A stretch of 62,625 nt of DNA, filler included. It is 4 parts of 4 records of this genome, joined end to end, with 100 filler letters (N's around TTAATTAATTAA, not from the genome) between each part and the next. Parts side by side here need not be neighbours in the genome. Positions count along the whole stretch, not along the records: positions 43,041 to 52,713 come from SRR31156797_8418; 3 more parts are not named here. One strand, 5' to 3'. Both the position numbers and the translations under genes were made by a program. Below the pieces are notes generated by a model that saw only the letters and a list, made by a program, of their open reading frames with translations, did no database searches and was not told the origin of the DNA. This document shows positions 40,795-60,759 of the stretch, one piece after another (position 1 is the first letter of the stretch; every line of letters begins with the position of its first letter).

Positions 40795-40846
40795 TTCAAT
40801 TATCAATTACCTGAAGTTAGAATTCTCTATCGGAGGCAAAAAAATC

Positions 40847-41923: not shown

Positions 41924-41958
41924 AGCCTGTTGCAGCCAGTCCCCTTTGGAGAACCAAC

Positions 41959-42840
41959 ATGGAAACCGCTTTCGGACCCGTGCGTATACTTTTTGGAGAC
42001 AACCGCGGCAAGTACCCAAATTGCCATACAATTTACGTGGAAGCCGACACCAGGGTCGTCATAGATCCCGGCTGCAACCGGGACGTGTTATCCGGGCTGC
42101 TTAAAGGGCCCGGCGTGGATGCTGTCTGGTTGACCCATGTTCACGAAGATCATATAACCCACCTCGATCTTTTCATGGACCGCCCGTTGTGGGTTTCTGA
42201 AAAAGAGGCTTCCGCTTTTGACAGCCTGGACGCCTTCATGAGCTTTTTCCCTCAAACAGATGAAGAAAGAGCCATGTGGGATCAAATGCTTATCGAAACA
42301 TTTCATTACCGGCCGCGGAAAGTCGACCGTCTCTTTTCAGGGCGGGAAACAATAGATTTGGGCGGCGTAATTGTGGAAGCCGTGCCCGCCCCCGGACACA
42401 CGCCCGGGCATTATTCCTTTTATTTTCCGGAACAGGGCGTCCTGTTCATGGCCGATTACGACCTGACCCCGTTCGGCCCGTATTACGGCGATTTATATTC
42501 GGACATTGACGACGTGATCGACTCGGTCAACAGACTGCGTGAAATCCCGGCCAAAATCTGGCTGACTTCCCACGAAAAGGGGATGATTGAAGCCGAACCA
42601 GGCGACCTTTGGGATAAATACCTGGCCGTAATCGATACACGGGAAAACAAGCTGCTCGATCTGTTAAAAGAGCCGCGCACCATGGAAGAAATTATCCAGG
42701 CCAGGATTGTATACGGCAAAGTCCGTGAACCTAAGGAATTTTTCGATTACGGCGAACGAAACCTCATGGCCCGGCACCTTGTCCGCCTGATGAACAATGG
42801 CGTCGTAGCCCATGAAAATGATAGATATTCTCTGATTTAA
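41959..42840 (+). CDS. MBL-fold metallo-hydrolase with C-terminal wHTH-like region
   Basis: IDPG, THVHEDH, PGHTPGH, ADYDL, TSH. Confidence 0.88.
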   Translation: METAFGPVRILFGDNRGKYPNCHTIYVEADTRVVIDPGCNRDVLSGLLKGPGVDAVWLTHVHEDHITHLDLFMDRPLWVSEKEASAFDSLDAFMSFFPQTDEERAMWDQMLIETFHYRPRKVDRLFSGRETIDLGGVIVEAVPAPGHTPGHYSFYFPEQGVLFMADYDLTPFGPYYGDLYSDIDDVIDSVNRLREIPAKIWLTSHEKGMIEAEPGDLWDKYLAVIDTRENKLLDLLKEPRTMEEIIQARIVYGKVREPKEFFDYGERNLMARHLVRLMNNGVVAHENDRYSLI

Positions 42841-42940
42841 AACCTCTCAAGCCGTGGTGATTTTTACTGCTGCCCAATTTACTCTTTAATTACTCTCGCT
42901 CCCAGGCTCTGCCTCAATGTTGTTGATTTAAGCTATTACG

Positions 42941-43040
42941 NNNNNNNNNNNNNNNNNNNNNNNNNNNNNNNNNNNNNNNNNNNNTTAATTAATTAANNNN
43001 NNNNNNNNNNNNNNNNNNNNNNNNNNNNNNNNNNNNNNNN
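42941..43040. other. Artificial contig linker
   Basis: N44-TTAATTAATTAA-N44. Confidence 0.99.
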
Positions 43041-43430
43041 TTAAGGCCATTATTTTTGCAGTTCATTATAGATTGAACTAACTAATTTATTTAGCAAAGT
43101 TAGTTTTTTGAATTTTTTTACTGATATTAGACAAATTGTCGTTTTGTGTTATTTTTGTCTAAAAATTTCAGTTTTTTTACAAAATTCATGTTTTAATTTA
43201 TTTTTATGCTGATTAGTAGAGCAAATAACACTAAACAGTGTCTTTATGTGTCACATATGACGTTTTTATAATGTTTGTTTTTCTTGTGAAAGTTATGTGG
43301 AAGGTGTATAATTTAGGGAAATATGAATAATGCGCAATAATGTTGCGTGTTATTATATATGCAACTTTTTACTTATATAATGCCTATAAACGAATTAGGT
43401 GTGATACTTCATTAATTTTAAGGAGGAAAT

Positions 43431-44051
43431 ATGAATATATTTCAAGCGGTTTTATGTAATTGGTATACACTAGATGTTAAGTTTAATTATGTACTTTTTA
43501 TCGGAATCATTTCCATTATTTTACTGATTAGATTTTTTATTAAGCATAAGGCACAAGATTTCGAAATTGATTCTGCTGAGTTTGGTTTTGGAGCCAATAA
43601 GTTAGTCATAAAAGAAAATAGCCTTGATTATCAAATTGCATATATGATATGGATTGAACTAAGTACAAGAAAGTTAGGGATAATGATCGACAAGGAACAT
43701 GATGTTGTTCACGAAATTTATGATTCTTGGTATAATTTTTTTGAAATCACACGTGAGTTGTTGAAAGAAATACCAGTAAGTAAAATTAATAGATCGGATA
43801 CCACATATAAATTAATTGAGCTTTCTTTTGAAGTTTTAAATGATATAATACGTCCTCATTTAACAGTTTGGCAAGCTAAATATAGAAAATGGTATAAAAA
43901 TAATGAGAATAATTATGAGAACCTTACTCCTCAGGAGACACAAAAGAAGTATCCAGAGTATAATAAACTTTTGAAAGAGATGGAGTTAGTTAATAAACAG
44001 TTAATAAATTATAGAAATTTAATGTATGGAATTATAAGGAGGGGAAGATAA
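43431..44051 (+). CDS. Uncharacterised single-TM helical protein, first gene of the TIR operon
   Basis: AAGGAGG RBS; TM at ~aa 19-36; WIELSTRK, YDSWY, IRPHLTVWQ motifs; TAA directly abuts the next ATG. Confidence 0.75.
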   Translation: MNIFQAVLCNWYTLDVKFNYVLFIGIISIILLIRFFIKHKAQDFEIDSAEFGFGANKLVIKENSLDYQIAYMIWIELSTRKLGIMIDKEHDVVHEIYDSWYNFFEITRELLKEIPVSKINRSDTTYKLIELSFEVLNDIIRPHLTVWQAKYRKWYKNNENNYENLTPQETQKKYPEYNKLLKEMELVNKQLINYRNLMYGIIRRGR

Positions 44052-44657
44052 ATGCACAAGGTATTTATTAGTTATCATCATGCCAATGATCAGTATTATA
44101 AAGATGAACTATTAAGACTCAATGAAACTAATCAATTTTTTGTAGATAGATCCGTAGGTGATTATGATATTGATGATTCATTAGATGATCAATCTATTAG
44201 AAAAATAATAAGAGATAAATATCTAAAAGATAGTACTATTACAATCCTTTTAGTTGGTGCAGAAACTAAGAACAGAAAACATATCGATTGGGAGCTTTAT
44301 TCCAGTATGTATAATGGTAGTAAAAATAAAAAGTCCGGAATAATTGTTGTTACTCTACAGGAACCAGATAATCAAAATTTTATTGCGGTTCATGATAAAG
44401 AGAAGGAAACCATATATCCAGAATGTACTAACTGGATTCCAACTTTACCTGAAAATGAGTTAAAGCGTAGATATCCTAATATGCCTAAGAGAATTATTAA
44501 GAACCTTTTATATGAGGAATCATTCATTTCAGTTATTTCTTGGGAACGATTTATTAGTAGCCCAACTATAATTAAGTTTCTTCTTGACGCAACTTACAAC
44601 GATAGAAGTAAAGCTGAATATGATTTAAGTATGCCAATGAGAAGGGCTAACGGTTAG
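44052..44657 (+). CDS. thsB: Thoeris ThsB-like TIR protein (DUF1863 type) 1
   Basis: KVFISYHH.ND, IRDKYLKDSTITILLVG.ET..RKHIDWEL (putative catalytic Glu). Confidence 0.88.
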   Translation: MHKVFISYHHANDQYYKDELLRLNETNQFFVDRSVGDYDIDDSLDDQSIRKIIRDKYLKDSTITILLVGAETKNRKHIDWELYSSMYNGSKNKKSGIIVVTLQEPDNQNFIAVHDKEKETIYPECTNWIPTLPENELKRRYPNMPKRIIKNLLYEESFISVISWERFISSPTIIKFLLDATYNDRSKAEYDLSMPMRRANG

Positions 44658-44744
44658 CTTCGTAATAGCAATCAATATAGACAAAGTCTAGAAGTGCATT
44701 CATATCGTAAAATTATACTAAATATTAATAAAGGAGTTGAACGT

Positions 44745-45311
44745 ATGGCATATAATGGTTTTGGAATAAAACGTCAAGTGTTCATATCTCATTATAAAGG
44801 AGATAGAAAAGAAGTTGATAATTTTATTGAAAAATTTGCTAATCAAGAAAAGGTATTTACTCCTTATGTTCTAGGTGCTAATGACAATGATGAGTTCATT
44901 AACAGCACTAATACAGATTATGTAATGAATCAAATAAGGAAAAAATATTTACAAGATACAACTGTTACCATCGTTTTAATTGGGAAATGTACTCATAGTA
45001 GAAGATACATTGACTGGGAGATAAAAAGTTCTTTGAGACAAGGAGGTTTTACCCCTAATGGATTATTGGGAATTCTTTTGCCCAGTCAAGGAAATTCGGC
45101 ACATCTTCCTCCTAGATTTAAACAAAATTGGGAAAGAGGTGAACAAAATTGCTACTCTAGGTATAGATCATACCCTAAAAGTGCAAAAGAATTGCATGAT
45201 TGGATTGAAGATGCTTACGATGCAAGAATTAAAAAGGCTAATTTAATAAAAAATAGCCAAGAAATGATGAAATATAATAATAAATGCAACGTTTGTAAAA
45301 TAACCCATTAG
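44745..45311 (+). CDS. thsB: Thoeris ThsB-like TIR protein (DUF1863 type) 2
   Basis: ATG 44745 after AAGGAG; QVFISHY, IRKKYLQDTTVTIVLIG....RRYIDWEI, NGLLGI.LP...LPPR. Confidence 0.87.
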   Translation: MAYNGFGIKRQVFISHYKGDRKEVDNFIEKFANQEKVFTPYVLGANDNDEFINSTNTDYVMNQIRKKYLQDTTVTIVLIGKCTHSRRYIDWEIKSSLRQGGFTPNGLLGILLPSQGNSAHLPPRFKQNWERGEQNCYSRYRSYPKSAKELHDWIEDAYDARIKKANLIKNSQEMMKYNNKCNVCKITH

Positions 45312-45346
45312 ACAACATGTCACAAAAATAAAAAAGGAGATAAAAA

Positions 45347-45901
45347 ATGGCTATAATTAATCTATTCGATCAATTTGAAAAAAGTAAATTATATAATGAA
45401 AGTGTAATCTTAGAAAACGTTGCACTTAACAAAGAAAGAATTTTTTTATCACATAAAAGCATTGATAAAGAAAAAGTTAAAATAATTGCTAAATTTCTTA
45501 ATAAAAATGGATATGATATTTATTTAGATGAATATGATAAATTTTTGCAAGAAGCAGTTACAAATAGTAATCATAATAAAGTCGTTGAAGCGATTAAAGA
45601 AGGTATTGAAAAATCTACACATCTATTATCTTATATTTCAAAAAATACAGATAAATCTTGGTGGGTTCCTTATGAAATCGGTTTAGCTGATGAGAAATTA
45701 AAAAAAATTATGAGTTTAAAAGATAAAGAAGTTGATAACTCAAGACTTCCAGAATTTATTAAGATTAAGCCTATCATCAGAGAAGTAATTCAATTAGAAA
45801 AATATTTCCCTAAGAAATATTCTTCTAATGGTTTATTCCTATTTTCTGAAAGTAATGACAATTCCAATTATAGAACCAATCTGTATGAAATACTTGAATA
45901 A
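45347..45901 (+). CDS. Stand-alone TIR (TIR_2-type) protein
   Basis: IFLSHKSIDK, GYDIYLD, STHLL..IS..T..SWWVPYEIG (putative catalytic Glu); AAGGAG RBS. Confidence 0.88.
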   Translation: MAIINLFDQFEKSKLYNESVILENVALNKERIFLSHKSIDKEKVKIIAKFLNKNGYDIYLDEYDKFLQEAVTNSNHNKVVEAIKEGIEKSTHLLSYISKNTDKSWWVPYEIGLADEKLKKIMSLKDKEVDNSRLPEFIKIKPIIREVIQLEKYFPKKYSSNGLFLFSESNDNSNYRTNLYEILE

Positions 45902-45919
45902 TGAAAGGAGTGATATAAG

Positions 45920-47914
45920 GTGTATAAAGAGCCTTTAACTATACATATCTTGTGGCATGAAAAATTTGAAGAAGGAACAAATTTTGCCGAGTATATATTT
46001 AAAAAACTAAATAGAGATCCTGATAATATTAATTTTAGAGATATTGGTATCCCTGTAATTTTTAAAAATCTTTCTAAAAATGATACTCATATTAATTATG
46101 ATAAAACAGACAGAACATTTATAGTAATATTAGTTGATGATTACATGGTTATGGATAAAGAATGGGGTAATTATATTAATTTAATTTCGGAAAAAGTAAA
46201 AACCTCTAATAATATTCATCTTTTACCAGTAGCAATGAATAGTAATTCTTTTAATTTAAATATTGGAAGTAAAAATTACATTCGATTACATGATGTAGAA
46301 ACTTTTGAATCAATATTTAAAAATTCAGAAAATTTAAGAGATAATTTAGAGTTCAAAAAAGAGTTTTTATTAAGTGAACTATCTCATGAAATAGCAAGAG
46401 AATTAATTAATCCTGATAATAAAGCTCCTTTAAAGCTATTTTTAAGTCATGCTAAATCTGATGGAGTTAATATTACAAGAATTTTAAAAAAATATATAGA
46501 AACTTTTACGAAATCAAAAACCTTTTTTGATGCTAATGATATTGAAATTGGAAAAGAGTTTTGGGAAAGAATTGAAAAAAATATTGAAACATCTTTTTTA
46601 GTTATTATTCAATCTGATCAATACTCAAATAGTATGTGGTGTCGAAAGGAAATTCTTGCTGCAAAAAAACATAATAGACCTATTTTATGCATTAATTCAA
46701 TTGAAAAAGAAGAAAATCGTTCTTTTCCTTATATGGCAAACATTAAAAATATACGTTTGACAGAAAAATCTTCATTCAAGGATTTTTACCATGTAATAAC
46801 TGAAATATATATTGAAGCAATTCGTAATAAATTTAACCAATTAAAAATGGAAGTTTTTGTTAAAAATAATAACATTGATAGCAAAATAATAATTAATTCT
46901 CCAGAATTATTGGATTTTGTTGAAAATAAAGATTTTACAGAAGATTTAATCATTTATCCTGATCCACCATTATCTGAAGAAGAAATAGAATTATTTGATA
47001 ATTCAAAAAAATACCTAACCCCATTAACTTATATAACCAAGCATAAAAGAATATTGGAAAATAAGAAAATTTCATTCTCTATTTCTGAAGAATCTATGAA
47101 ACAAAAAAAAGTAAAGTTTTATATGCTAAAAGATATCATGAATGAATTAATTAGATATATATTTTATTACGGAGGAAATATATATTATGGCGGGGATTTA
47201 AAGTATGATGTTAAGGATAATTACAATTTATTAAAAAGTATGATTAATGTTCTAGAAGCATATAATAAAACTGCTGATAAAAACGATAAAGAAATTGTTA
47301 ATTACGTAGCATATCCTTTAACAGAAAATTTATCAATTTCAGATGAAGCAAAATATAAAAAAATAGTTAAATTTGAGAAAATAATTCCAAATGATTTTAA
47401 AACAGATTTAACAGATATAGAAAAAAATAACATATTTTGTTTAAATAAAATTGAGGATTTAGAAAAATGGTGTATATCTCTTTCTACAATGCGAGAAAAC
47501 TTATTAAAAAAAGTTGATGCTGTTGTCATAATGGGTGGAAAAACAATAGGATATAAGGGATGTTATCCTGGAGTTTTAGAAGAATTTTTGATAGCAAAAG
47601 ACAATAAAAAACCAATCTATATACTAGGCGGATTTGGTGGTACTAGTAAGGAAATAATTAATTTAATCAAAGGAAAGGATTCTGAAAAACTAAGTGAACT
47701 ATATCAACTAGAGAATAATAATGAACATTACAAAAATTATTATAATCAAAAAATAGAATTAAAATACGAAGCTATTTGTTCTCAGATTAAAAATGATGAA
47801 ATAAATCAATTGAATAATGGTCTAACTGATGAGGAAAATAAGGTTTTATTTGAATCAGAGAATGCCTATGAAATCATGAATTTAATCATAAAAGGACTAG
47901 CTAATATTTTCTAA
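45920..47914 (+). CDS. TIR-like + TIR + SLOG fusion protein
   Basis: TIR: LFLSHAKSDG, TFFDANDI, YSNSMWCRKEI (from ~46430); SLOG: ISFSISE, YYGGDL, LSTMRE, VIMGG, PGVLEE, KPIYILGGFGG (from ~47065); N-terminal alpha/beta domain resembles a degenerate TIR. Confidence 0.82.
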   Translation: MYKEPLTIHILWHEKFEEGTNFAEYIFKKLNRDPDNINFRDIGIPVIFKNLSKNDTHINYDKTDRTFIVILVDDYMVMDKEWGNYINLISEKVKTSNNIHLLPVAMNSNSFNLNIGSKNYIRLHDVETFESIFKNSENLRDNLEFKKEFLLSELSHEIARELINPDNKAPLKLFLSHAKSDGVNITRILKKYIETFTKSKTFFDANDIEIGKEFWERIEKNIETSFLVIIQSDQYSNSMWCRKEILAAKKHNRPILCINSIEKEENRSFPYMANIKNIRLTEKSSFKDFYHVITEIYIEAIRNKFNQLKMEVFVKNNNIDSKIIINSPELLDFVENKDFTEDLIIYPDPPLSEEEIELFDNSKKYLTPLTYITKHKRILENKKISFSISEESMKQKKVKFYMLKDIMNELIRYIFYYGGNIYYGGDLKYDVKDNYNLLKSMINVLEAYNKTADKNDKEIVNYVAYPLTENLSISDEAKYKKIVKFEKIIPNDFKTDLTDIEKNNIFCLNKIEDLEKWCISLSTMRENLLKKVDAVVIMGGKTIGYKGCYPGVLEEFLIAKDNKKPIYILGGFGGTSKEIINLIKGKDSEKLSELYQLENNNEHYKNYYNQKIELKYEAICSQIKNDEINQLNNGLTDEENKVLFESENAYEIMNLIIKGLANIF

Positions 47915-48001
47915 AAATTCTTATCCTAAAACTAAAGTTTTTATCCTATGCGTAGTGTGCTTGTAAACTAAGAAATAATTATGAAAGGAAGTGATTCGTA
48001 C

Positions 48002-51000
48002 ATGCAAAATACTGTTAAAACTCTTAATAGAGATTCTATATTTAAGACAGCCTATAAGCAATATCAAATATTTTTTAAATTTCTAAATAAAAATAATTGG
48101 CTCGCAAGAATAACTTCTTTATTGGTTTTTACATTACTTTCAACTCTGGTTTGGTATCTCTTACTTGGTTATCTACAATTTAATATTTGGAAACAACCTG
48201 ATCCTGGTAAACATATTGATCACTTTATACTAAATATTCTTAAAATTGATGGGATAAAATTCAATTATTTTCAGTTAAAAGGTATTTTAATGATGTGGGT
48301 TGACTCTTTAAGTATTGTCCTTCCTACCATATTTATGGTATCTATTGTTACGCTATATGCAAGTAAAATATCTAAAAAATCAAAATATTCTTTTTTATCT
48401 CTTTCTCTAAGTTTTATTATAAATATTTTTATCGCATTAGTTCCATCACTAATAGCTTTTTATATAACAGAAGCATATTTTAGTAATAATACTCTCTATA
48501 AAGAGCAAACTACTTGGTTTTTAGAGAAGTTTATAGATATTTCTTCTGATTATACATACTTTGAATCGTTTAGTATCTATGCTTTATCTACCCTTACTCC
48601 TTGGTTTATATGGATTTGTTTGTTACTATTAGAGATTTCTAAACGTAGCTCGCGTTCAGCAATTTATGTATTAACATTTATGTTTCAAGTCTTGAGATTT
48701 CAATACTCTATTTCCAATTCATTAAATATCGAAGCTGAAAAACTTGAAGAAGTTCATGGAATTAATCATCTAAAACATAAGATAAAAGGTTATTCTATAT
48801 TAACTCGTGCAGCAATAGCACGCTTTGGGGGATACGATTTTTTTATTTCATATAGTCGAAAACCTGAAAAATTAATTAAAGTTGGAGGATATAATTATGC
48901 TCATAAACTAAAAGAAATACTGGAATCAGATGGATTTAAATGTTTTATTGATGATTCAAGTATGCATCATGGTGAATCTTGGAAAAAATCAGTTTTTAAA
49001 GCATTAACACGTTCTTCAGTATTACTAGTTGTGGCAAATGCAAAAGCCTTAAAACAATCCAGTGTTATTAACGAAATCAGAACTTTTTCCCATATGCCAC
49101 GTCCAATAATGCCTATTTCTTTTAATAATAGCGTTAAAAATCTTGATACGAATTTAGAGGTCTGGTCATTATTAGAACAACGGTTACGATGTGAAGAACC
49201 TAGGGGGATTGTCGCATTAAAAGATGGAATCCCTTCGCCTGATATTATTGAAACTTGTAATAATGCTTTTATTGGAGTAAAAATACAGCGTGTTCGGCAA
49301 TTAATACTATTTCTTCTGGTGTTAGTTCTAACTGGTTTATCATTATTTGCTTGGAGAAACGCCACTAAAGAAGTTAAAGCCCGTAAAGCATTAAATATCC
49401 AACTTATTGGAAGCTCTTCAATAAATGAAATTGAAAAAAACCCTTATTTAGCTTTAATCTTAGCAAGAAAATCTGGTGACTTACTAGAAAATACTCAACC
49501 TCCTTCATCCACAATAAATGCAATTAATAAAATCTTAAATCAATGGCCTGCCCTCCACAGCGCTCAACGGATTGTAACCAATACTTTATTAACATCATCT
49601 CCATGGTTAGAAAAGGATTTTATTGCTGTAGGTAGTAGCTACGCATGGCTATTTCCAGAACTAAGAAAACCTAGGGAATTTCAACCTATTGAATATCGAA
49701 ATCCTATAGATTTTTCTGAAATTAATCCAACAAGTGGAACTTATCTAAAAAATATAAATCAGTTTATATTAGGTGATTACAAAGGTAATATTTATAAGCT
49801 TTCGCGTGATGCTTCTAAACTCAAACTTTTAGAAAATTTAGCAGATGATAGAATTTCCCCCATTGTTAGTACAGAATCGCTACCTAACTATATACTATAT
49901 GCTACTGAAGCTGATCATCCAGAGATTTGTCTTTTAAATATTAAAACAATGCAAACGCAAAAAATTAATTTTAATCAATTTAAGTATCAAATTGATCAGC
50001 TGGCTATGACTTCAAATAAAATATATGCTCTCTCTAGAGGAAATCTATTTGAAGCATCTCTTTTAAAAATAAAAGATGAGATCCAAATTGATGAAAATTC
50101 ATGGAAAAAACTAGAAACACCTATCGACTCTATAGATCATTTTGCATTAAAAGCAGATTCTAACATTTTTGCAGTTACAGACGGTTATAAGTATTTTATA
50201 ATTGATTCCTCTAAAAATGAAATTATTCATAACGACGAATTTAAAAACACCTATATAAGTGCACTTACTTTTGCACTTAATAGTAACCAAATAGCTATTA
50301 GCTTACAGAGCAATAAGAAAAACGAAGTTATTTGTATTGATTTTTATAACAAGAAATCTTTAAATTCCTATCCAAGTCTTGATAATGTTGCTGCTTCTTA
50401 CATTAAGTACATCGATAACGATTCGAAACTTGTATCTGTAAGCTACGAAGGGCTAGCTGTAATATGGGATCTAGAAATTGAACAATTACAACCAACAACA
50501 CTTCCTGGAAAGCTGATAGCAGTTGAACCAAAATTTAAAGGTGGCTTTGACTTACTTATTGACAAAAAAAATGATGAACCTCTATATAATTCAAACGATA
50601 ATATTAGAGTAAATATAATGCCATACGAAAGTACAGGGACTTTTCATGATTTTTCTTCATCTGTGGAAAATGATTTCCTATTTTTATCAAAAGGTAATTC
50701 CGTGTATAAAAAATCTCCTTCTGATGAAAATGAATGGGAAAAATTACTCACCGATAATACTGGAAAGCAAATTAAAAAACTAGATACAATTAATAACCAC
50801 ATTTGGTTATTTCGTGATGATCTTATGTTCAACAATTATGACTTAAAAAATGGGTCTTTTAATAATGAATGGTTAAAATCACCTCGCAGTAGTGCTCGTT
50901 TTGTAAATCGTTCAATGTCAAAAAATGAAATTGAACAGAGAAGTATTATAAGACAAATTATCTACTCACCACAACTTAACTTGAAGCTATTGATATTATC

Positions 51001-51598
51001 TAATGGTAGTTTAATAAAATATCAATTAGGATTACTACAAAAATTAAATATTCTTCCCTTACATAGTTCATTAACTTATGGAATTACTAACATTAGTAGT
51101 AATGAAATTATTCATACCTCTAATAATAACTCATTTCTTGCAATTGCTAATGAAAATAGTTCTGAAGTCACAATGTTCCATATTAAGGAAAAAAGAATTA
51201 TTAAAAAAAATAAATATTTTGATAAAAAACCTGTTGGTTTAGCTCTTTCAAATCATAGTGAAATGCTAGCAATAATATTTGAGAAGCAAAATCCAAATAC
51301 AGCTGAAGGAATTGATTTAATCCTTCAAATACTCGATCCTAACTCTTTTGAACCTTTAACTTCTGAAATCTTAATACCAGGAGAATACGATGAAGAAAGG
51401 CATCCTTTAATGGCTTTTGATCCAATTGAAGAAAAATTATTAATTAGCCGTTATGGTCGAGATTATATAATTTTGCCATTTTCATTTAACCATAGTTATC
51501 AGCAATTAAGAAATAAAGTTTCTTTTGAATTATTCCCTGACGAAGCTAAAAGGTATAACTTAGAGTATATTGAATTACCAAAAAGATCTGTTAAATAA
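48002..51598 (+). CDS. Multi-TM + TIR + TM + WD40-like beta-propeller protein
   Basis: About 4 N-terminal hydrophobic helices; TIR YDFFISYSR, CFIDD, SSVLLVV, SVINEI; TM LILFLLVLVLTGLSLFAW; WD-like blades such as LVSVSYEGLAVIWDL; ATG 48002 after AAGGAAGTGA (ORF track starts at 47981). Confidence 0.78.
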   Translation: MQNTVKTLNRDSIFKTAYKQYQIFFKFLNKNNWLARITSLLVFTLLSTLVWYLLLGYLQFNIWKQPDPGKHIDHFILNILKIDGIKFNYFQLKGILMMWVDSLSIVLPTIFMVSIVTLYASKISKKSKYSFLSLSLSFIINIFIALVPSLIAFYITEAYFSNNTLYKEQTTWFLEKFIDISSDYTYFESFSIYALSTLTPWFIWICLLLLEISKRSSRSAIYVLTFMFQVLRFQYSISNSLNIEAEKLEEVHGINHLKHKIKGYSILTRAAIARFGGYDFFISYSRKPEKLIKVGGYNYAHKLKEILESDGFKCFIDDSSMHHGESWKKSVFKALTRSSVLLVVANAKALKQSSVINEIRTFSHMPRPIMPISFNNSVKNLDTNLEVWSLLEQRLRCEEPRGIVALKDGIPSPDIIETCNNAFIGVKIQRVRQLILFLLVLVLTGLSLFAWRNATKEVKARKALNIQLIGSSSINEIEKNPYLALILARKSGDLLENTQPPSSTINAINKILNQWPALHSAQRIVTNTLLTSSPWLEKDFIAVGSSYAWLFPELRKPREFQPIEYRNPIDFSEINPTSGTYLKNINQFILGDYKGNIYKLSRDASKLKLLENLADDRISPIVSTESLPNYILYATEADHPEICLLNIKTMQTQKINFNQFKYQIDQLAMTSNKIYALSRGNLFEASLLKIKDEIQIDENSWKKLETPIDSIDHFALKADSNIFAVTDGYKYFIIDSSKNEIIHNDEFKNTYISALTFALNSNQIAISLQSNKKNEVICIDFYNKKSLNSYPSLDNVAASYIKYIDNDSKLVSVSYEGLAVIWDLEIEQLQPTTLPGKLIAVEPKFKGGFDLLIDKKNDEPLYNSNDNIRVNIMPYESTGTFHDFSSSVENDFLFLSKGNSVYKKSPSDENEWEKLLTDNTGKQIKKLDTINNHIWLFRDDLMFNNYDLKNGSFNNEWLKSPRSSARFVNRSMSKNEIEQRSIIRQIIYSPQLNLKLLILSNGSLIKYQLGLLQKLNILPLHSSLTYGITNISSNEIIHTSNNNSFLAIANENSSEVTMFHIKEKRIIKKNKYFDKKPVGLALSNHSEMLAIIFEKQNPNTAEGIDLILQILDPNSFEPLTSEILIPGEYDEERHPLMAFDPIEEKLLISRYGRDYIILPFSFNHSYQQLRNKVSFELFPDEAKRYNLEYIELPKRSVK

Positions 51599-51711
51599 TT
51601 ATAAACAAATTAGTATACATAAACAAAACCGTCTAACAACATGACCTAAAATGAAAAGCGGATTTCAGTTTAGTCGCAAATACGATAAACTCATCAAAAG
51701 CTCTACAAAAG

Positions 51712-51763
51712 AAAAAACAACCCCTCCCAAAACGCTCAACAGCGCCTCAGGAGGGGTCTTTTT
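51712..51763. terminator. Hairpin/terminator between the TIR operon and the HEPN gene
   Basis: ACCCCTCC...GGAGGGGT stem flanked by A and T runs. Confidence 0.65.
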
Positions 51764-51774
51764 ATCTTAAATAT

Positions 51775-52680
51775 TTACTTTTCCTTCTCAGCCAATTCCC
51801 TAAACTGCTCCAACTTCTCATTACAAATATCATATGTCAGCTTCTTCAACTGCTCCACTCGAACTACTAAATACTCCAACTGTTCTTTAGTAATCACAAA
51901 GTCTTTCTTATAACGCGATCCAATATATGATTCTTGCAATTTATCAAACATATCTTTTTCCAATTGAGTTTTTCGAGGAAATGGATGTCTAAATCTTGAG
52001 TCTTCTTTTATCGCCTGCCCTAAAAGCATTTCCAAATCATGAGTTTTCGGTTTATAATCAGTAAAAATAAGAATATTCGTCATTAAAAATCTTTCTGTTG
52101 CTTGATGTAGCATCAAAGAAGCCAGTTTATAGTATTCTTTATCAAATTCAGATTCTCCCATATTAAGGTAATAATTTCTTAAGAATCTAGTAGCACTGCC
52201 TCCCCACTCTTCCAGATACTCATTCACCTTTTCAACTCTCACAACATAGCTAATCTCTTTCGGTTCCTCAAACTCCCAATTTGGCTCATTATACAGAACT
52301 ATCCCTTCATGATAAATGTCGCAGAAGAAATAACGCCTTTCATCCAACATCTCAGTTATATAGTCATAGCCGTGAAAGATCAAACTAACGGGAGTCTCAG
52401 TTTCATAGTGAGCTCTGACATAATCTCTCACTTTCCCCACGAACTTCTTGCTCCTTGATCTCCCCTCATATCTGGTAACAATCAGCAGATCATAGTCACT
52501 TTTATATTCATATGTGATACCATCTTCTACATAGCTGTCATCTACCCAAGTCCCCCGTGCAAAACTACCATAGAGAATTATCATCTCTATCCTGCCTGCG
52601 AATTCCTCTTTGATCAGATCAACGAATCTATTCAGCTCATCCTGCTTTGACTGTGGTAAATGTGCAATACTTGTCTTCAT
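51775..52680 (-). CDS. Fused nucleotidyltransferase (MNT)-HEPN protein
   Basis: ILYGSFARG, SDYDLL (pol-beta NTase); HEPN LHQATER...PKTHDL...YIGSRY. Confidence 0.88.
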   Translation of the reverse strand: MKTSIAHLPQSKQDELNRFVDLIKEEFAGRIEMIILYGSFARGTWVDDSYVEDGITYEYKSDYDLLIVTRYEGRSRSKKFVGKVRDYVRAHYETETPVSLIFHGYDYITEMLDERRYFFCDIYHEGIVLYNEPNWEFEEPKEISYVVRVEKVNEYLEEWGGSATRFLRNYYLNMGESEFDKEYYKLASLMLHQATERFLMTNILIFTDYKPKTHDLEMLLGQAIKEDSRFRHPFPRKTQLEKDMFDKLQESYIGSRYKKDFVITKEQLEYLVVRVEQLKKLTYDICNEKLEQFRELAEKEK

Positions 52681-52713
52681 AAACTCATCCTCAATAATTA
52701 GTTTTTATTCATT

Positions 52714-52813
52714 NNNNNNNNNNNNNNNNNNNNNNNNNNNNNNNNNNNNNNNNNNNNTTAATTAATTAANNNNNNNNNNNNNNNNNNNNNNNNNNNNNNN
52801 NNNNNNNNNNNNN
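52714..52813. other. Artificial contig linker
   Basis: N44-TTAATTAATTAA-N44. Confidence 0.99.
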
Positions 52814-53207
52814 ATTTTTCTTTTATTATCATTTTTACATCTTTTGTTGTAAAAATTTGTTTATCTATTAATAATAATTTAAGCTCATCAAACTCTTTTG
52901 GTGTTAACCGCGAAGGTCTTCCAGGTTGTTTTGTAGGTACTAAACCTTCATAACCACTTTGATTCCAGTAGTCACGCCATCGATAGATATTTCTACTGGG
53001 AATTTTAAATGTAGTGATGACATCTTTGACCTTCATGCCATGATATATAGCATTTAAACAAAGTAATTTAATTTTGATATTACCATTTTTTTCTTCAGAT
53101 ATACATTTTTCTAATAACTCAGGATTTAAAATCTCCATAACAATCACCCATATATGTTATACTCCATTTTTCATATAAATCTGTCATTATTTAGGATTAT
53201 CATTATA
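52814..53207 (-). mobile_element. IS630-family element, left part (transposase N-terminal HTH, 53147 to contig end)
   Basis: IYRWRDYWNQSGYEGL....PGRPSRLT pattern of IS630 HTH domains; putative end at the TA at 53207-53206. Confidence 0.72.
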
Positions 53208-53795
53208 GTTACCTGCTCCGAATTTATAACCAAGTTCAAGTGAAGTTGTTGTATAAATTAAAGCTGCGTCTAAAGAAAAGAAAGCATTACTAAGTTCAAC
53301 TGTTACTGCCTGAACTTCATATACTGCTTCAAATAAGAAGTTATTAACTTCAATTCCTAAACCAGCTCCATAATACAGCCCCATTCCAACTTCTGCATCT
53401 TGTGTATCTGTATCTAAAGCATCAATATAATCTCCACTAAAAGACGAAGCTCCAGCACTTAATCTCAAATAAGGGTTCATTCCAGCTTCTCCTAAATTTA
53501 ATTTACCTGTACCGTATACTATCATTGTATCAGTAGATGTATTATCATTATCATCCTCTTCCAAACTTGCATATTTTTTATAAGCTAAACCTGCACCAAA
53601 TTCTAAACCTTCACCAAAAAGATATTCAGCCCTAAGTACGTAACCTCCACTTGCCAAATCATTATCTGTATCATCAAAATCTCCACCAACAGTCTGAGTT
53701 CCTGATAAATCCATTCCACCTCTTACTTCTAATCCGGCTGAAAAAGCAGTTAATGATACTGTTGCTATTAATAATAGCAATATTATTTTTTTCAT
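53187..53795 (-). CDS. Outer membrane beta-barrel protein (paralog 1)
   Basis: Signal peptide MKKIILLLLIATVSLTAFSA; amphipathic strands, PYLR, LYYGAGLG, ELGYKF. Confidence 0.82.
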   Translation of the reverse strand: MKKIILLLLIATVSLTAFSAGLEVRGGMDLSGTQTVGGDFDDTDNDLASGGYVLRAEYLFGEGLEFGAGLAYKKYASLEEDDNDNTSTDTMIVYGTGKLNLGEAGMNPYLRLSAGASSFSGDYIDALDTDTQDAEVGMGLYYGAGLGIEVNNFLFEAVYEVQAVTVELSNAFFSLDAALIYTTTSLELGYKFGAGNYNDNPK

Positions 53796-53958
53796 ATTTC
53801 TCACCTACACTCTACGCATAAATATTTCTTCACCAAACCAATAATACCTTGGCATAATAATTATACGACATTATAGTTGAACAATTCATCATTATGAATT
53901 TAAAAATTGAGCAGAATAAAATCTGCTCAAAGATTAGTTAGTTTAATTTATAAAGTAA

Positions 53959-54606
53959 TTAATTTCCTGCTCCGAATTTATAACCTACTTCAAGTGTAAC
54001 TGTAGCTATATTAATTGCATCATCTGTATCAGTAAAAGTTATATCTCCTAAATTAGTTTCTCCAGTAATATCCGTTACAACTGTAACAGCATCGTAAGAA
54101 ACTTCAATCAAGATATTATTATAATCAAAACCTGCTGCAACTCCATAATATAAACCCGGACTTACTTCATATGTTACTTCTGCGCTTGTTATTAAACCTG
54201 ATGAAGCAATATAAAACGCTTCGAATACTTCTTCAACTTCTGTAAAGTAATCACCGGCACTATTCATTGCATATCCTACATTTGCTCTTAAGTAAGGACT
54301 AAATCCAGATTCTCCTAAGTTTAATTTAGTTGTACCATACAAAATCGTTGATGTCATAAATGATTTCCCATCAAGTGCTTCAGTATCTGATTCTACATTA
54401 CCAAATTGCTTATATGCAACTCCACCACCAAACTCTAATCCTTCTCCAACTAAATATTCTACTTTCACTACATAACCTGCACTCATATCTGTATCATCTG
54501 CATCTATTGAAGTTGAAGCGTCAAATCCACCTCTTACTTCTAGTCCAGCTGAAAAAGCAGTTAACGACATTGTTGCTATTAATAGTAGTAATATTATTTT
54601 TTTCAT
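53959..54606 (-). CDS. Outer membrane beta-barrel protein (paralog 2)
   Basis: Near-identical signal peptide; SPYLRANVGY, GLYYG, EVGYKFGAGN. Confidence 0.82.
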   Translation of the reverse strand: MKKIILLLLIATMSLTAFSAGLEVRGGFDASTSIDADDTDMSAGYVVKVEYLVGEGLEFGGGVAYKQFGNVESDTEALDGKSFMTSTILYGTTKLNLGESGFSPYLRANVGYAMNSAGDYFTEVEEVFEAFYIASSGLITSAEVTYEVSPGLYYGVAAGFDYNNILIEVSYDAVTVVTDITGETNLGDITFTDTDDAINIATVTLEVGYKFGAGN

Positions 54607-54902
54607 ATTCATCTCCTTTTTTAAACTCTAATTAAATCAATATTAAAGTATTAACTCCAGACCAATGAACAGATGACTTTAATCAAACGCCTCCTTTCGT
54701 TGATATATAAAAAAGATGTATATATTAATATTATCGATATAGAATCTAATTTTTTTAGTTTTTTCTCTTAAGTCATTTTACTGATTTTAGGATTTTTTCC
54801 TTTTTTTATTTACATTATGTGAAAATTTAGATCAATTTCCCTCTTGTCAATTACTCTAATAAGTTATAAAATATAAAATAAAATTAGCACAGGAGGTGTT
54901 TT

Positions 54903-55703
54903 ATGCTTACATATTACACTGATCAAAATCTTGATTTTTTTGAAATAAAAAAATGTCGAAGTGTCAGTCAGTCTGAGAAGGCACATTTTCATAACGAGAT
55001 ATCAATTATTCTAATCGAAGACTCTATAACCTATGTTACTTCAGACAAACAAATTGAATATAAATTTGAAAAAGATAGCTTTGTAATTATTCCATCTTTT
55101 AAAACTCATAACTGTGTTCCTGTTAATAAAGATGAGTTTAAATTCACTATAATGTATCTAAGCTCTGAATGGTTCGAAAAAACTTTTCACTTTAATCTGG
55201 ATAATAAAGAGATTCAATTTTATAAACTTAATTCAGATGAAGTAAAGGAAGTTATTAATTTATTTGAAATATTTCAATCGGATATCTCTCCTATAACAAA
55301 GGAGTTTAACTTAATAAAATTCCTGGAAAAATACCTTATTGAAAAAACTGATTTTTCTAATGAGAGTCAAATTAATTCTGTTAAGCAGAGTAAGCTTGAG
55401 CTTGTAAGAAAATATTTAAGTCAAAATTATAATGAGAAAGTTTCCTTGGAAAAATTAAGCGAGATTTCAGGTTTAAGTAAATATCACCTTACAAGAAGTT
55501 TCAAATCAAAATATGATCTCAGCCCGCTTAACTATCAAAAAAATATTAAATTTAATCATGCTAAAAAGTTTTTAAGAAGAAATAATAATATCTCAGACCT
55601 TGCACTTGATTTGGGTTATTATGACCAGAGTCATTTTACTAATGAATTTAAGAAATTTTCAGGAATTTCTCCAAAAAAATATAGAAAAAGTACAAAACAT
55701 TAA
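54903..55703 (+). CDS. AraC family transcriptional regulator
   Basis: AHFHNE cupin; SGLSKYHLTRSFK, LGYYDQSHFTNEFKK..G.SP. Confidence 0.93.
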   Translation: MLTYYTDQNLDFFEIKKCRSVSQSEKAHFHNEISIILIEDSITYVTSDKQIEYKFEKDSFVIIPSFKTHNCVPVNKDEFKFTIMYLSSEWFEKTFHFNLDNKEIQFYKLNSDEVKEVINLFEIFQSDISPITKEFNLIKFLEKYLIEKTDFSNESQINSVKQSKLELVRKYLSQNYNEKVSLEKLSEISGLSKYHLTRSFKSKYDLSPLNYQKNIKFNHAKKFLRRNNNISDLALDLGYYDQSHFTNEFKKFSGISPKKYRKSTKH

Positions 55704-55818
55704 TTTAAGTTTGCTGAATCATAATTTTTATTTAAAATAGCAATTTCTTCCAAGATTATTTTTGTACATATGACTAAAATATACTAGAGATTAATATTTA
55801 ACTAAAGGAAGTGAAGAA

Positions 55819-56700
55819 ATGGAAAAAAAAGAAGTAAAAGGTTATATTCTGGCTTTAACAACAGTAGTTATCTGGGCAAGTACATATGTTTTTAAGAAAC
55901 ATTTATTACTTGAACTAAATCCATTGGAGATTTTATTTTATAGGTTTTTAATAGCATTCTTAATTTCATGCATAATTTATCCAAAATTTAGTTTTAAATT
56001 CGATTTTAAATTAGAAAGAGATTTTCTACTAACAGGTTTAGTTGGAGTTACTACATATTATGCACTTGAAAATATTGCACTTCAATATACTCAGGCTTCA
56101 AACTTTGGATTAATAGTATCTTCCATACCGATTTTTACAGCTATCATTGCACACTTCATTCATCATGATGAAAAGTTTCATAAAAATCTTTTATACGGAT
56201 TTGCTTTCTCAATAGCTGGAATTTTTCTGATTATATTTAACGGAAAGTATGTGTTAAATTTAAAACCGATTGGTGATCTCCTTGCTGTATGTGCTGCTAT
56301 AGCATTTGCAATATACTCCAACTTACTTAAAAGGATTAATTCCGAGCTGCATATTATTGCATTTATCAGAAAAATATTTATGTATGGAGTTATTACAATG
56401 TTGCCTCTGCTGTATTTTACCAAAACTCCAATAAACTTAATTAAAATAATCGAACCTGTTGTATTTATCAATTTAATCTTTTTGGCACTTTTTGCATCTA
56501 TTATTGCTACAATATTTTGGAATAAGGCGATTAAATTAATTGGAGTTAACAAAACAAGTTCATTTATATATCTTGTACCGATGGTATCTATGATTAATTC
56601 ATTTATATTTTTAAATGAAAAAATAAGTATTTTAATGTTAGTTGGTGGTTCTTTAATTTTATTCGGAGTTTCATTCAGTGAAAAAAAGAAAAAAACTTAA
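55819..56700 (+). CDS. DMT/EamA family transporter
   Basis: IWASTY, RFLIA, ENIALQYTQAS, GDLLA, WNKAIKLIG; about 10 TM. Confidence 0.92.
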   Translation: MEKKEVKGYILALTTVVIWASTYVFKKHLLLELNPLEILFYRFLIAFLISCIIYPKFSFKFDFKLERDFLLTGLVGVTTYYALENIALQYTQASNFGLIVSSIPIFTAIIAHFIHHDEKFHKNLLYGFAFSIAGIFLIIFNGKYVLNLKPIGDLLAVCAAIAFAIYSNLLKRINSELHIIAFIRKIFMYGVITMLPLLYFTKTPINLIKIIEPVVFINLIFLALFASIIATIFWNKAIKLIGVNKTSSFIYLVPMVSMINSFIFLNEKISILMLVGGSLILFGVSFSEKKKKT

Positions 56701-56766
56701 TAAAAAAGAACTTAGCTGATAATACTAATTTAAAATAGGCAAAAGTTTAATTTTATTCCAAAAAAT

Positions 56767-56807
56767 AAAAAAGTCTCGCTTCCCAATAATGAAGCGAGAC
56801 TTTTTTT
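56767..56807. terminator. Bidirectional terminator
   Basis: AAAAAAGTCTCGCTTC...GAAGCGAGACTTTTTT. Confidence 0.85.
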
Positions 56808-56985
56808 ATTGCATGTTGTTTTGTTGTTTTATTTCATCCAGTAATTTAGCATAATCTTCTTTCGAAATAAGTACGTATTCTCTTTCCAGATGAAATAAAT
56901 CCATTCCTGATAAGATTCTTTTGGTTTTGATAATTCTTGATGCTTCTGCAGTTGAAGCTTCAAATTTTTCATGCAACTCTTTCAT
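56806..56985 (-). CDS. 59-aa small protein absent from the ORF track
   Basis: AAGGGGG RBS; MKELHEKFEASTAEASRIIKTKRILSGMDLFHLEREYVLISKEDYAKLLDEIKQQNNMQ*; stop runs directly into the terminator. Confidence 0.65.
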   Translation of the reverse strand: MKELHEKFEASTAEASRIIKTKRILSGMDLFHLEREYVLISKEDYAKLLDEIKQQNNMQ

Positions 56986-57425
56986 AATAATTCCCCCTTG
57001 AAATATAATTATGTACAGTATACATTATTTTGTTTTTTCTGTCAAATACTTTTTTCATTATTATGGAGTTTTACTCCTTCAACTTATAATCTTTTGGAAT
57101 CTTTATTTTTCATAGCATTTTCGTTGTATATACAAGTAGTAAAAAATTTCTCAACTTAATTAATTTTATTAACATACTTTTAACATGTTTTTTTCATCCG
57201 TTTAACCATTGTGAACAAAACTAACATGACAATGTGATTTTATTAACTTCTAACAAAACTTAGTTGGAGTTTTACTCCTTTTAATTGGCGCAAAATCTCC
57301 AGTTTTGGATTGTTTTATCGTTAAAAATTTAATAATCTCATTCATTTTTCTATCTTAACCCATTGATAAATCTTGAAAATAATGCTAGAATATGGCGATA
57401 AATAAATATATTAGGAGGTTGGCTA

Positions 57426-58340
57426 ATGACAACATTAGTTTTCGGGCATAAGAGTCCAGATACAGATTCAATTTGTTCAGCAATTGCATTTGCAACTTTA
57501 CAAAATGAATTAGGTGGAAACGCCGAAGCGGTTAGACTAGGGGAAATTAACAAAGAGACTGAATTTATCTTAGATCACTTCAATATCGAAGTACCAAAAT
57601 ATATTAGCAAAGTTGACAACGGACAAAAAATCATGTTAGTGGATCACAACGAAACTGCACAATCAGTTACAAACAGAGAGAATGCAGAAATTGTACAAAT
57701 CGTTGATCATCATAGAGTAGATCTTTCTACAGCAGCTCCTATCAATTTAAGAGTTGAAGCTGTTGGATGTACATCTACAATTATTTCAAAAATTTACGCA
57801 GAAAACAGTTTAACTCCTGACAAAAAAACAGCAGGAATTATGCTAAGCGCTATTTTATCTGATACTTTATTATTCAAATCTCCTACTTGCACAGACGAAG
57901 ATATTAAACAAGCTAAAAAATTAGCTGAAATTGCAGAACTTGACTATGAAAAATATGGAATGGATATGTTAATCGCAGGTACTTCATTAGGTGATAAAAC
58001 AGCAGAAGAGATCTATCACATGGATATGAAGCCTTTCCAATTTGGTACTCAGAGAGCTACAGTTGCTCAGGTTAACACTGTAGATATCAAATCTGTTATG
58101 GAGATGAAAGATGAGTTAGAAGCTGTTATGACAGATTTAATGAAAAAAGAAAATCTTGATTTTACTTGTTTCATGATTACTGATATTGTAAATAAAGGAA
58201 CTGAGTTCTTTGTAGTTGGAGATAAAACTCTTTCTAACAAAGCATTTGGAATGGATATGAATTCTGAAACAATCTATTTAGAAGGTGTAGTTTCAAGAAA
58301 AAAACAGATCGTTCCTCCTTTAACTGAAGCTGCAAAGTAA
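57426..58340 (+). CDS. ppaC: Manganese-dependent inorganic pyrophosphatase (family II, DHH)
   Basis: GHKSPDTDS, LVDHNE, VDHH, VGCTST, ILSDTL, GVVSRKKQIVP. Confidence 0.96.
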   Translation: MTTLVFGHKSPDTDSICSAIAFATLQNELGGNAEAVRLGEINKETEFILDHFNIEVPKYISKVDNGQKIMLVDHNETAQSVTNRENAEIVQIVDHHRVDLSTAAPINLRVEAVGCTSTIISKIYAENSLTPDKKTAGIMLSAILSDTLLFKSPTCTDEDIKQAKKLAEIAELDYEKYGMDMLIAGTSLGDKTAEEIYHMDMKPFQFGTQRATVAQVNTVDIKSVMEMKDELEAVMTDLMKKENLDFTCFMITDIVNKGTEFFVVGDKTLSNKAFGMDMNSETIYLEGVVSRKKQIVPPLTEAAK

Positions 58341-58357
58341 TATAAATTTAACCATAC

Positions 58358-58389
58358 AAAAAACGTCTCGACAAAGTTCGAGACGTTTT
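58358..58389. terminator. Bidirectional terminator
   Basis: AAAACGTCTCGA...TCGAGACGTTTT. Confidence 0.8.
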
Positions 58390-58395
58390 ATTTTT

Positions 58396-58980: not shown

Positions 58981-59208
58981 TTTAACACCTCCAGCACGAA
59001 AAATTCCTTTTTTATAAATTCTCTCTATATTAATTTTATACCACATTATTCATACTAATACCCATTTTTTTGACTTGAATTTTTATTTTTAATTAGGAAT
59101 TTACTGGATAAAATGCTAAAATTAGTAAAATAAATTGAGAAAAATATTATTTTTAAATCAAAGTCAGATTAAAACATTCTGACTTAAAAAATAATTTGAG
59201 GTGATGAG

Positions 59209-60693: not shown

Positions 60694-60702
60694 AAATTAT
60701 AT

Positions 60703-60741: not shown

Positions 60742-60759
60742 ATATAAATATTTTTTATT

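Follow-up and report, generated by a model that had tools for sequence, protein, structure and literature searches.

Thoeris systems, as set out in two recent preprints, follow a logic in which TIR proteins sense and make a nicotinamide adenine dinucleotide (NAD)-derived messenger, and a SLOG domain reads that messenger and activates the effector fused to it; type I joins the TIR protein ThsB to a SIR2-SLOG protein, ThsA, and type III combines multiple TIRs with a SLOG effector, its signalling being described there as uncharacterised (bioRxiv 10.64898/2025.12.03.692087; 10.64898/2026.01.22.701046). Here, we analyse a gene in a 62.6-kb window (the term used below for the whole stretch of DNA analysed) that encodes a 1205-amino-acid (aa) protein, referred to as the target, in which four transmembrane (TM) helices precede a TIR domain, a fifth TM helix and a double propeller. 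The target belongs to a large family built in the order TIR, TM helix, WD40 propeller (TIR-TM-WD40), and our central result is that this family is recurrently encoded beside a protein that fuses a TIR to a SLOG domain of cluster 2 (TIR-SLOG2). The SLOG clusters are reportedly those defined by Burroughs et al. 2015.

The likeness of the window to Thoeris lies in its gene content, with five TIR-bearing genes and one SLOG (PF18163) arranged in one co-directional cluster. The differences lie in the SLOG protein itself, a 664-aa product whose SLOG is of cluster 2, such that the ThsA-type STALD model barely passes (24.4 bits vs a cut-off of 24), and is joined to a TIR in place of SIR2 or NucS. Pfam found no SIR2, Macro or NucS domain of the ThsA/ThcA type in this protein, PADLOC returned no match to it, and against the NCBIfam model ThcB4 it scored 39.7 bits, where the cut-off is 220. 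Judged by these domains, the window system would work like Thoeris but falls outside the type I–III effectors. No Thoeris TIR that spans the membrane and carries a sensor outside was found in the literature searched, as far as the accessible text of those sources extends.

Other described proteins share parts of the target's layout. Toll-like receptors are single chains that place their sensor outside and their TIR inside, with one TM helix adjoining the TIR, which is the arrangement predicted for the target. However, their order is leucine-rich repeat (LRR), TM, TIR, whereas the target runs TIR, TM, WD40; its sensor is of WD40 type with no LRR, its TIR is of a putative enzyme type in place of an adaptor-recruiting scaffold, and the two share sequence only at the level of the TIR fold. 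The description of the target as Toll-like-receptor-style, given in a first-pass annotation of this DNA, is thus apt as an analogy of layout, and misleads as to chain order, sensor type and the enzyme-like TIR. The Bacteroides hybrid two-component proteins BT4663 and BT4673 likewise join a cytoplasmic signalling domain across the membrane to outside propellers, and their periplasmic domains were among the Foldseek matches to the target (BT4673, 3ott, E 5e-17; BT4663, 4a2l, E 1e-16), but the target's output domain is a TIR, not a kinase, and its propellers are of WD40 type. The mycobacterial Ser/Thr kinase PknD is another transmembrane sensor with an extracytoplasmic propeller. Finally, TIR-STAND-WD40 proteins, which resemble nucleotide-binding LRR receptors (NLR-like), carry a TIR at one end and WD40 repeats at the other, some with a TM helix between, but the target differs from them in having no NTPase module.

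Pairing of the membrane TIR with TIR-SLOG2

Metagenome contigs were scanned with a profile of the TIR+TM region and the pattern G[YF]DFF[IV]SY, and the best 80 of 193 confirmed matches were kept, giving 79 loci. Partners were searched for with a local TIR-SLOG2 profile, built from the window protein and three plasmid homologues, at a cut-off of E<1e-20. A TIR-SLOG2 homologue was present in 22 of these 79 loci carrying a TIR-TM-WD40 family member. After the focal proteins had been clustered at 90% identity, it was found in 14 of 59 clusters, in 12 of the 28 clusters with at least 2.5 kb of upstream sequence, and in 7 of the 12 flanked by 2.5 kb or more at each side. The first-pass annotation had named a lack of linkage between homologues and TIR/SLOG operons as a result that would refute it; the homologues are linked, as these 14 clusters display, and the refutation fails.

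The arrangement of the paired genes was often close to that in the window. Less than 500 nucleotides (nt) separated the two genes in seven clusters, and in loci L041–L043 the order, the strand and the 66-nt gap were identical to those of the window. Pfam recovered PF18163 together with TIR_2 adjoining the TIR-TM-WD40 gene in L011 and L041, the former having the order integrase, TPR protein, TIR-TM-WD40, N-domain plus TIR, SLOG2, ThsB-like TIR and TIR. In L034, two tandem TIR-TM-WD40 genes follow TIR-SLOG2, and in L050 the SLOG2 is fused to a CHAT protease and lies 4.5 kb away. When the TIR+TM region was analysed by maximum likelihood (62 rows), the tree placed paired loci on both of its main branches and grouped the clade of the target with L011–L014 (support 100/99). 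Further, locus L079 (201-767) encodes a homologue of the window's second ThsB-like TIR, 68% identical and two genes upstream of a TIR-TM-X gene, on a contig with a guanine-plus-cytosine (G+C) content of 51%, as against ~28% in the window operon; this identity despite the differing G+C suggests recent horizontal transfer of the module.

Used as a single query against genome contigs, the TIR-SLOG2 protein gave no match. Full-length or split TIR-SLOG2 genes accompanied by other TIRs were found on plasmids of Priestia, Gloeothece, Klebsiella, Pseudomonas, Methylorubrum, Roseicitreum, Mesorhizobium and Rhizobium, and an Aureispira plasmid carries an operon with homologues of all five genes that lie upstream of the target in the window. 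Because the combination of several TIRs with TIR-SLOG2 recurs on the Aureispira and other plasmids, we regard it as a system in its own right. The Aureispira operon is located between type III-B Cmr genes and cas6/cas1/cas2, and its six genes (Aureispira sp., NZ_CP133672.1, locus L002, 7948-13109) encode, in order, a nucleoside 2-deoxyribosyltransferase-like protein, a TIR, TIR-SLOG2, two further TIRs and a homologue of the first open reading frame (ORF1) of the window operon. On a Rhizobium beringeri plasmid (NZ_CP140877.1, locus L005, 7094-25980), an unannotated cluster of ~19 kb encodes two large TIR-TM proteins and a WD40 protein with a TM anchor but no TIR, together with a split TIR/SLOG2, an AAA/FGE-sulfatase protein, two more TIRs and a patatin-like protein with multiple TM helices. 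A Mesorhizobium plasmid (L010) has a similar locus with a patatin and many TIRs.

Several of these loci weigh against a fixed partnership and against the signalling role that we draw from it below. TIR-SLOG2 is missing from 5 of the 12 well-flanked clusters, so that the pairing is not obligate, and the neighbours in unpaired loci are diverse: giant DUF7379-CHAT proteins, a patatin with a TIR, ThsB-like and other TIRs, and ordinary metabolic or housekeeping genes. In a few paired loci (L028/L030 and L054–L056), the membrane TIR gene looks broken. Conversely, the Aureispira operon has no membrane TIR, and a TIR-TM-X gene lay within the examined stretch in one of ten TIR-SLOG2 plasmid loci, that of Rhizobium beringeri.

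The giant DUF7379-CHAT proteins are encoded directly upstream of TIR-TM-WD40 in L021 (2337-7790, 1817 aa) and L037 (2163-7931, 1922 aa), and the membrane TIR may have CHAT proteases as an alternative partner. A further conflict-type setting of the family is that of L057/L058 (5754-12736), where a dCTP deaminase-like protein, a ThsB-like TIR, Nmad2, TIR-TM-WD40 and a pentapeptide-repeat-TIR protein are encoded with no SLOG2.

The uneven pairing bears on the possibility that the target is a self-contained sensor and effector, whose own TIR would deplete NAD+ once clustered, with TIR-SLOG2 and the small TIRs being separate neighbours on a defence island or modulators. Such autonomy would fit a TIR that is SARM1-like with a conserved glutamate (see below), the many family members that lack TIR-SLOG2, as in the five well-flanked clusters above, and the existence of TIR-SLOG2 systems with no membrane TIR. 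Direct adjacency that recurs on both main branches of the tree is, however, hard to explain by island clustering alone, and we consider an independently acting target unlikely.

Architecture of the target and of its family

The target gene (47981-51598, + strand) was defined from the ORF list, its translation and a full-length relative, P0002. The position 48002, at which the first-pass annotation begins, corresponds to Met8 and is an alternative start in the same frame, and either start is possible. The window joins four contigs (1-31924, 32025-42940, 43041-52713 and 52814-62625) through three N44-TTAATTAATTAA-N44 linkers (31925-32024, 42941-43040 and 52714-52813) and is not one molecule; the target gene sits on the third of these contigs, which measures 9673 nt and has a G+C content of ~23–30% over the operon. 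Genomic context was accordingly read from this 9673-nt contig and from relatives elsewhere. The contig is present as one piece, with zero differences, among the contigs of its probable source run, at a depth similar to that of the other contigs of the run that match the window; this was the one public run found to contain the DNA, and no RNA run was listed. The gene is real, because its 1193-aa relative aligns with it end to end (36–37% identity) and because the contig is intact in the source run.

Five hydrophobic segments were found in the target by Kyte-Doolittle (KD) hydropathy in 19-residue windows (aa 44-62, 102-126, 141-163, 199-219 and 439-458; peaks 1.9–2.3). The first four form an N-terminal membrane domain (48110-48637, +), comprising TM1 (48110-48166), TM2 (48284-48358), TM3 (48401-48469) and TM4 (48575-48637), all on the + strand. 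Its loop 1, predicted to face outside, is conserved, with the motifs GY[LI]QF.IW.QP and IDHF. For this domain (4-TM), aa 1-270 matched zero Pfam families even at E up to 10, the ESM Atlas gave no usable match, and a three-sequence 4-TM profile reached an hhalign probability of 0.2 against one annotated S-4TM protein, the single comparator.

The TIR domain follows at aa 284-430 (48830-49270, +) and is predicted to be cytoplasmic. Pfam assigned it to TIR_2 (PF13676, aa 287-383, E 1.4e-9, 38.9 bits vs a gathering score of 28). A model of the N-terminal 480 residues, built from a 27-row alignment, was confident over the TIR and a continuous helix at 431-479 (predicted local distance difference test, pLDDT, 87–96). 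The closest structures to the modelled TIR were the TIR domains of SARM1 and RUN1 (TM-score on target 0.70–0.73 for SARM1); searched by sequence against PDB chains, the TIR gave nothing at E<=0.01, and it was the fold search that recovered TIRs. A glutamate after strand beta-C is needed for TIR NADase activity according to PMC7075850. The putative catalytic residue here, Glu365, does not vary in any of the 27 sequences aligned; it was equated with the catalytic glutamate by its position after the LLVVAN strand, not by residue-level superposition. Judged from the model, the TIR of the target looks enzyme-type and SARM1-like.

The fifth TM helix (aa 439-458; 49295-49354, +) has the highest hydropathy (KD peak 2.34), is modelled within the continuous helix at 431-479, and is preceded by a basic juxtamembrane motif, F.G.KIQRVRQ, that is conserved in the family, where the helix occupies the same position. 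A three-helix stalk (aa 459-521; 49355-49543, +), seen in the AlphaFold2 model and predicted to lie outside the inner membrane, leads into the propellers; its helices span model residues 2-28, 30-42 and 51-63, and a local profile search found the region conserved in the family. The model of the C-terminal 747 aa (21-row alignment; mean pLDDT 80.4, predicted TM-score 0.81) consists of this stalk and ~52 strands, and its Foldseek matches to tandem WD40 double propellers, including Apaf-1, reached E 1e-17 to 3e-20, the Apaf-1 double propeller alignments covering model residues 31-698. Propeller A (aa 522-833; 49544-50479, +) is seven-bladed and of WD40 type, as shown by superposing model residues 64-375 on RACK1, on G-beta and on WDR61 (Z ~26, root-mean-square deviation ~3 A, ~290 residues; VIA-align), and a weak Pfam match to the WDR5 propeller falls at aa 717-835. 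Propeller B (aa 834-1168; 50480-51484, +) is more divergent, with approximately six blades by the strand count of the AlphaFold2 secondary structure. No Walker A motif ([AG]xxxxGK[ST] or Gx(1-2)GK[ST]) was found in the target or in its two full-length relatives, and the Pfam scan of the target showed no NTPase or LRR family.

The layout in the first-pass annotation, with about four N-terminal TM helices, a TIR, a TM helix and a propeller, is borne out by hydropathy, Pfam and fold models for every element listed. Specifically, the TIR start that it had placed at ~48833 coincides with strand beta-A (nt 48833), the hydrophobic helix at ~49300-49355 corresponds to the fifth segment, and the basic motifs KISKKSK, KRSSR and KIQRVR were located at aa 129, 221 and 434, respectively. 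Its remark that a Walker A motif is lacking agrees with both the pattern scan and Pfam, and the AlphaFold and Foldseek check that it had proposed yielded tandem WD40-type propellers in the C-terminal region.

Searched exhaustively and without a profile, 1.84 billion cluster representatives yielded 883 matches at E<=1e-3, 108 at E<=1e-10 and 2 at E<=1e-30. The two strong matches were P0002 (1193 aa, full length, 36–37% identity) and P0003 (964 aa, covering aa 7-877), both singletons, on contigs of 6.1 kb and 4.0 kb. By region, the target (P0001) and P0002 share 52% identity over the TIR, 37% over the 4-TM domain and, over the propellers, 39% and 32%. The next ~100 matches (E<1e-10) align through their residues ~20-200 to target residues 267-455, that is, to the TIR and TM helix; over the TIR, juxtamembrane motif and TM helix they are 30–43% identical to the target, and most are 800–1150 aa long. 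Among the 148 non-clade matches listed, 138 contain a hydrophobic 19-mer, which in almost every case directly follows an N-terminal TIR. Pfam detected strong WD40 propellers in 18 of 28 relatives, weaker ones in 4, and TIR_2 only in the remaining 6. The propellers of the target clade have diverged so far that the Pfam WD40 models barely detect them; a C-terminal profile of this clade nevertheless recovers the stalk and blades of the family (for example, P0128 matches profile positions 17-519 at E ~1e-15). Members are named merely "WD40 repeat protein" or "hypothetical protein" in their sources.

The target breaks the family rule of a TIR at the extreme N-terminus, as ~265 residues with four TM helices precede it. 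A search of genome contigs and metagenome contigs with a two-sequence alignment recovered no further relatives of this 4-TM clade. By sequence, the target is a rare, elaborated member of a very large TIR-TM-WD40 family. The full-text literature, including the parts seen of PMC7159879, PMC8195603, PMC5587647, PMC7075850 and PMC9503650, and leaving aside supplements and Burroughs et al. 2015, contained no description of the TIR-TM-WD40 family or of its pairing with TIR-SLOG. New here are the TIR-SLOG2 partner, with its counts, and the 4-TM variant.

Predicted membrane topology

Topology was read from charge statistics. In all three members of the 4-TM clade, the N-terminal tail, loop 2 and the stretch after TM4 are rich in lysine and arginine (K/R), and two of the three have net acidic loops 1 and 3; loop 1 of the target has 5 K+R vs 3 D+E, and loop 3 of P0002 is marginally acidic (2 vs 3). 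The wider family gives a stronger signal. Across 116 family proteins, namely the 148 non-clade matches listed minus 32 that were shorter than 260 aa or had no segment of KD >=1.9, the 15-residue flanks of the post-TIR helix hold a mean of 5.3 K+R before the helix vs 3.3 after it. The N-terminal flank is the richer in 95 of the 116 proteins, equal in 15 and poorer in 6 (Wilcoxon p 5e-17). A TIR-less paralogue on the Rhizobium beringeri plasmid has a basic start (MANIRR), one hydrophobic helix (~9-27), a stalk and WD40 repeats, a layout that appears signal-anchor-like.

From these data, our best prediction is that the N-terminus and the TIR of the target lie inside and the propellers outside. 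A cytoplasmic TIR would also make sense because the putative enzyme uses NAD+. The first-pass annotation had proposed this same orientation, with the caution that the residues after the last helix are also basic. The caution was well placed: the fifth helix of the target is flanked by ~3 K/R before and 5 after, which is ambiguous by itself and counts against the prediction. As its own fifth-helix flanks are not positive-inside, the orientation of the target is drawn from the 4-TM domain and from the family, and the proposal stands as a prediction with the family's charge bias (95 vs 6) behind it. The pair L028/L030, considered as a natural split into TIR and TM-WD40 proteins, was dropped from the topology argument, since it more likely represents a frameshifted gene.

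The same flanks leave room for a reading in which the propellers are cytoplasmic, either because the post-TIR helix is a non-crossing anchor or because the topology is inverted, and in which the target would be a membrane-tethered, NLR-like TIR-WD40 protein with no NTPase. The WD40 sensors characterised so far, Apaf-1 among them, mostly act inside the cell, and Apaf-1 itself ranks with the best structural matches. However, the post-TIR helix in the family comprises ~20–22 apolar residues, the charge bias of its flanks across the family is strong (95 vs 6), the five-helix charge pattern of the clade fits N-in, C-out (inside segments K/R-rich in 3/3), and the paralogue sets a basic N-terminus and one hydrophobic helix before its WD40 repeats. 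We therefore hold cytoplasmic propellers to be very unlikely, and the prediction of propellers outside the inner membrane is the one carried forward.

The window operon and a candidate signalling route

The operon opens with ORF1 (43431-44051, +), a 206-aa protein with one N-terminal apolar helix that matched no Pfam, NCBIfam or PADLOC family. With 36% identity to the product of the final gene in the Aureispira multi-TIR operon (L002 12513-13085), it is a conserved component and may be a membrane effector or regulator. Two ThsB-like TIRs follow (44052-44657 and 44694-45311, both +), which match Pfam PF08937 at E 6e-20 and 7e-18 as well as the PADLOC ThsB models, and then a TIR_2 protein identified by Pfam (45347-45901, +). 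The TIR-SLOG2 gene (45920-47914, +) encodes, within its 664 aa, an N-domain, a TIR (TIR_2, E 3.5e-12) and the SLOG of cluster 2 (PF18163, E 4.4e-74). Its N-terminal ~170 aa (45920-46430), for which Pfam gave nothing even at E up to 10, are conserved in all homologues and remain on the TIR side where the gene is divided in two, as in Klebsiella, Rhizobium, Mesorhizobium and L011; in the TIR itself, W240-C241-x-x-E244 is invariant across 6/6 aligned homologues.

TIR-SLOG2 ends 66 nt before the target gene on the same strand. A pattern scan found no terminator-like site between 47914 and 47981, and the first such site is a strong two-way hairpin at 51719-51758 that closes the operon (no strand assigned; an 18-bp stem, 9 of its pairs being G-C, with runs of T on either strand). 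The shared strand, the 66-nt gap and the lack of a terminator-like site until 51719 make co-transcription plausible. Beyond the hairpin, a convergent gene (51775-52680, −) encodes a fused minimal nucleotidyltransferase-HEPN (MNT-HEPN) protein of 301 aa (HEPN E 5e-10; weak SMODS/Polbeta), which is a toxin-antitoxin or defence-type neighbour.

Across the window, Rfam and tRNA scans gave no match. An ORF at 52758-53147 (−) spans a linker, and its start is an artefact because the ORF crosses that linker. The second contig (32025-42940) has a G+C content of ~50–53%, as against ~23–38% in the other three; its ORFs include ComEC-like, DnaJ-like, MerR-like, Ser/Thr kinase and aminotransferase-like genes, and it may derive from another organism of the same bin or sample.

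The target pair and the three small TIRs may together form a Thoeris-like nucleotide-signalling pathway in which the transmembrane receptor is the input TIR, a reading that we favour tentatively, as something just short of probable. The SLOG2 hub pairs with varying sets of TIRs, which matches Thoeris logic, and for this reason we take the target to be an input TIR that carries its sensor outside the cytoplasm. In the first step, an extracytoplasmic ligand would bind the propellers and bring the membrane-tethered TIRs together in the plane of the membrane. That TIR enzymes need self-association is established for SARM1 and bacterial TIRs. The assembled TIRs would then convert NAD+ into an ADP-ribose-derived messenger, and the SLOG of the neighbouring protein would bind this messenger and activate the TIR NADase of that same protein, so that NAD+ would be depleted and growth would stop. 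SLOG2 has a TIR as its fused effector in the window and a CHAT protease in L050. In the rare clade, the 4-TM domain and its conserved outward loop may supply a further input at the level of the membrane or anchor the TIR at its two ends.

This pathway is also tempered by features of the target locus itself. The surroundings of the operon extend over the 9.7-kb contig only, the extra ~265-aa 4-TM domain occurs in three sequences (the target, P0002 and P0003), and its AlphaFold2 confidence is low (pLDDT 40–73). The topology is predicted, and the enzyme activity of the TIR and the role in defence are putative. We infer the flow of signal from the target to the operon, a direction that cannot be read from sequence.

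The direction of flow is where a reversed wiring would differ, with the cytoplasmic TIRs and TIR-SLOG2 as sensors and the target as executor, recruited by TIR-TIR contacts or by the messenger and disturbing the membrane through its 4-TM domain. Membrane-spanning effectors are common in Thoeris-type systems, according to one report (bioRxiv 10.64898/2025.12.03.692087), and the extra 4-TM domain of the target clade would suit such a role. Set against this, in nearly all of the relatives that pair with TIR-SLOG2 there is one TM helix and the 4-TM domain is missing, a ~700-aa double propeller is typical of a sensor and not of an executor, and the 4-TM domain is unlike any Pfam family or the one S-4TM effector with which it was compared. 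An executor role for the target thus seems highly improbable.

What the receptor would report is a separate matter from how it is wired. The same machinery could serve other biology, reporting envelope stress, neighbouring cells or kin through contact or a quorum-type signal in place of phage, and the housekeeping neighbours of some loci are in keeping with this. The context of the window operon and of its relatives is, however, of conflict type, with MNT-HEPN next door, an integrase beside L011, Cmr and cas genes flanking the Aureispira operon, and ThsB-like TIR, CHAT and patatin neighbours at other loci, and we consider a function unrelated to phage improbable.

Under the Thoeris-like pathway favoured above, the trigger could then be phage, through adsorption or injection as the first-pass annotation had proposed. 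In its most specific form, which is a speculative possibility and somewhat unlikely as a whole, immunity would run from the outside in: the periplasmic propeller, possibly together with the 4-TM loop, would detect phage tail or ejection proteins or a breach of the envelope, the partner SLOG would read an NAD-derived messenger, and the TIR NADase would fire before the phage genome is expressed.

To our knowledge, Thoeris and the other known bacterial TIR systems have been described as sensing phage components inside the cell. If the outside-in reading is true, this would be the first case of a bacterial TIR pathway set off from outside the cytoplasm, and its function would parallel that of Toll-type receptors. 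Compact and widespread in metagenomes, the gene pair is not covered by PADLOC 2.0; for expression and phage challenge it is thus a practical choice, and even if the topology prediction fails, it represents an undescribed TIR/SLOG configuration. Should topology and coupling both hold, the result would surprise specialists and offer a testable parallel to Toll-type signalling, and the pairing of a membrane TIR with TIR-SLOG would let bacteria trigger NAD-based immunity from the envelope.

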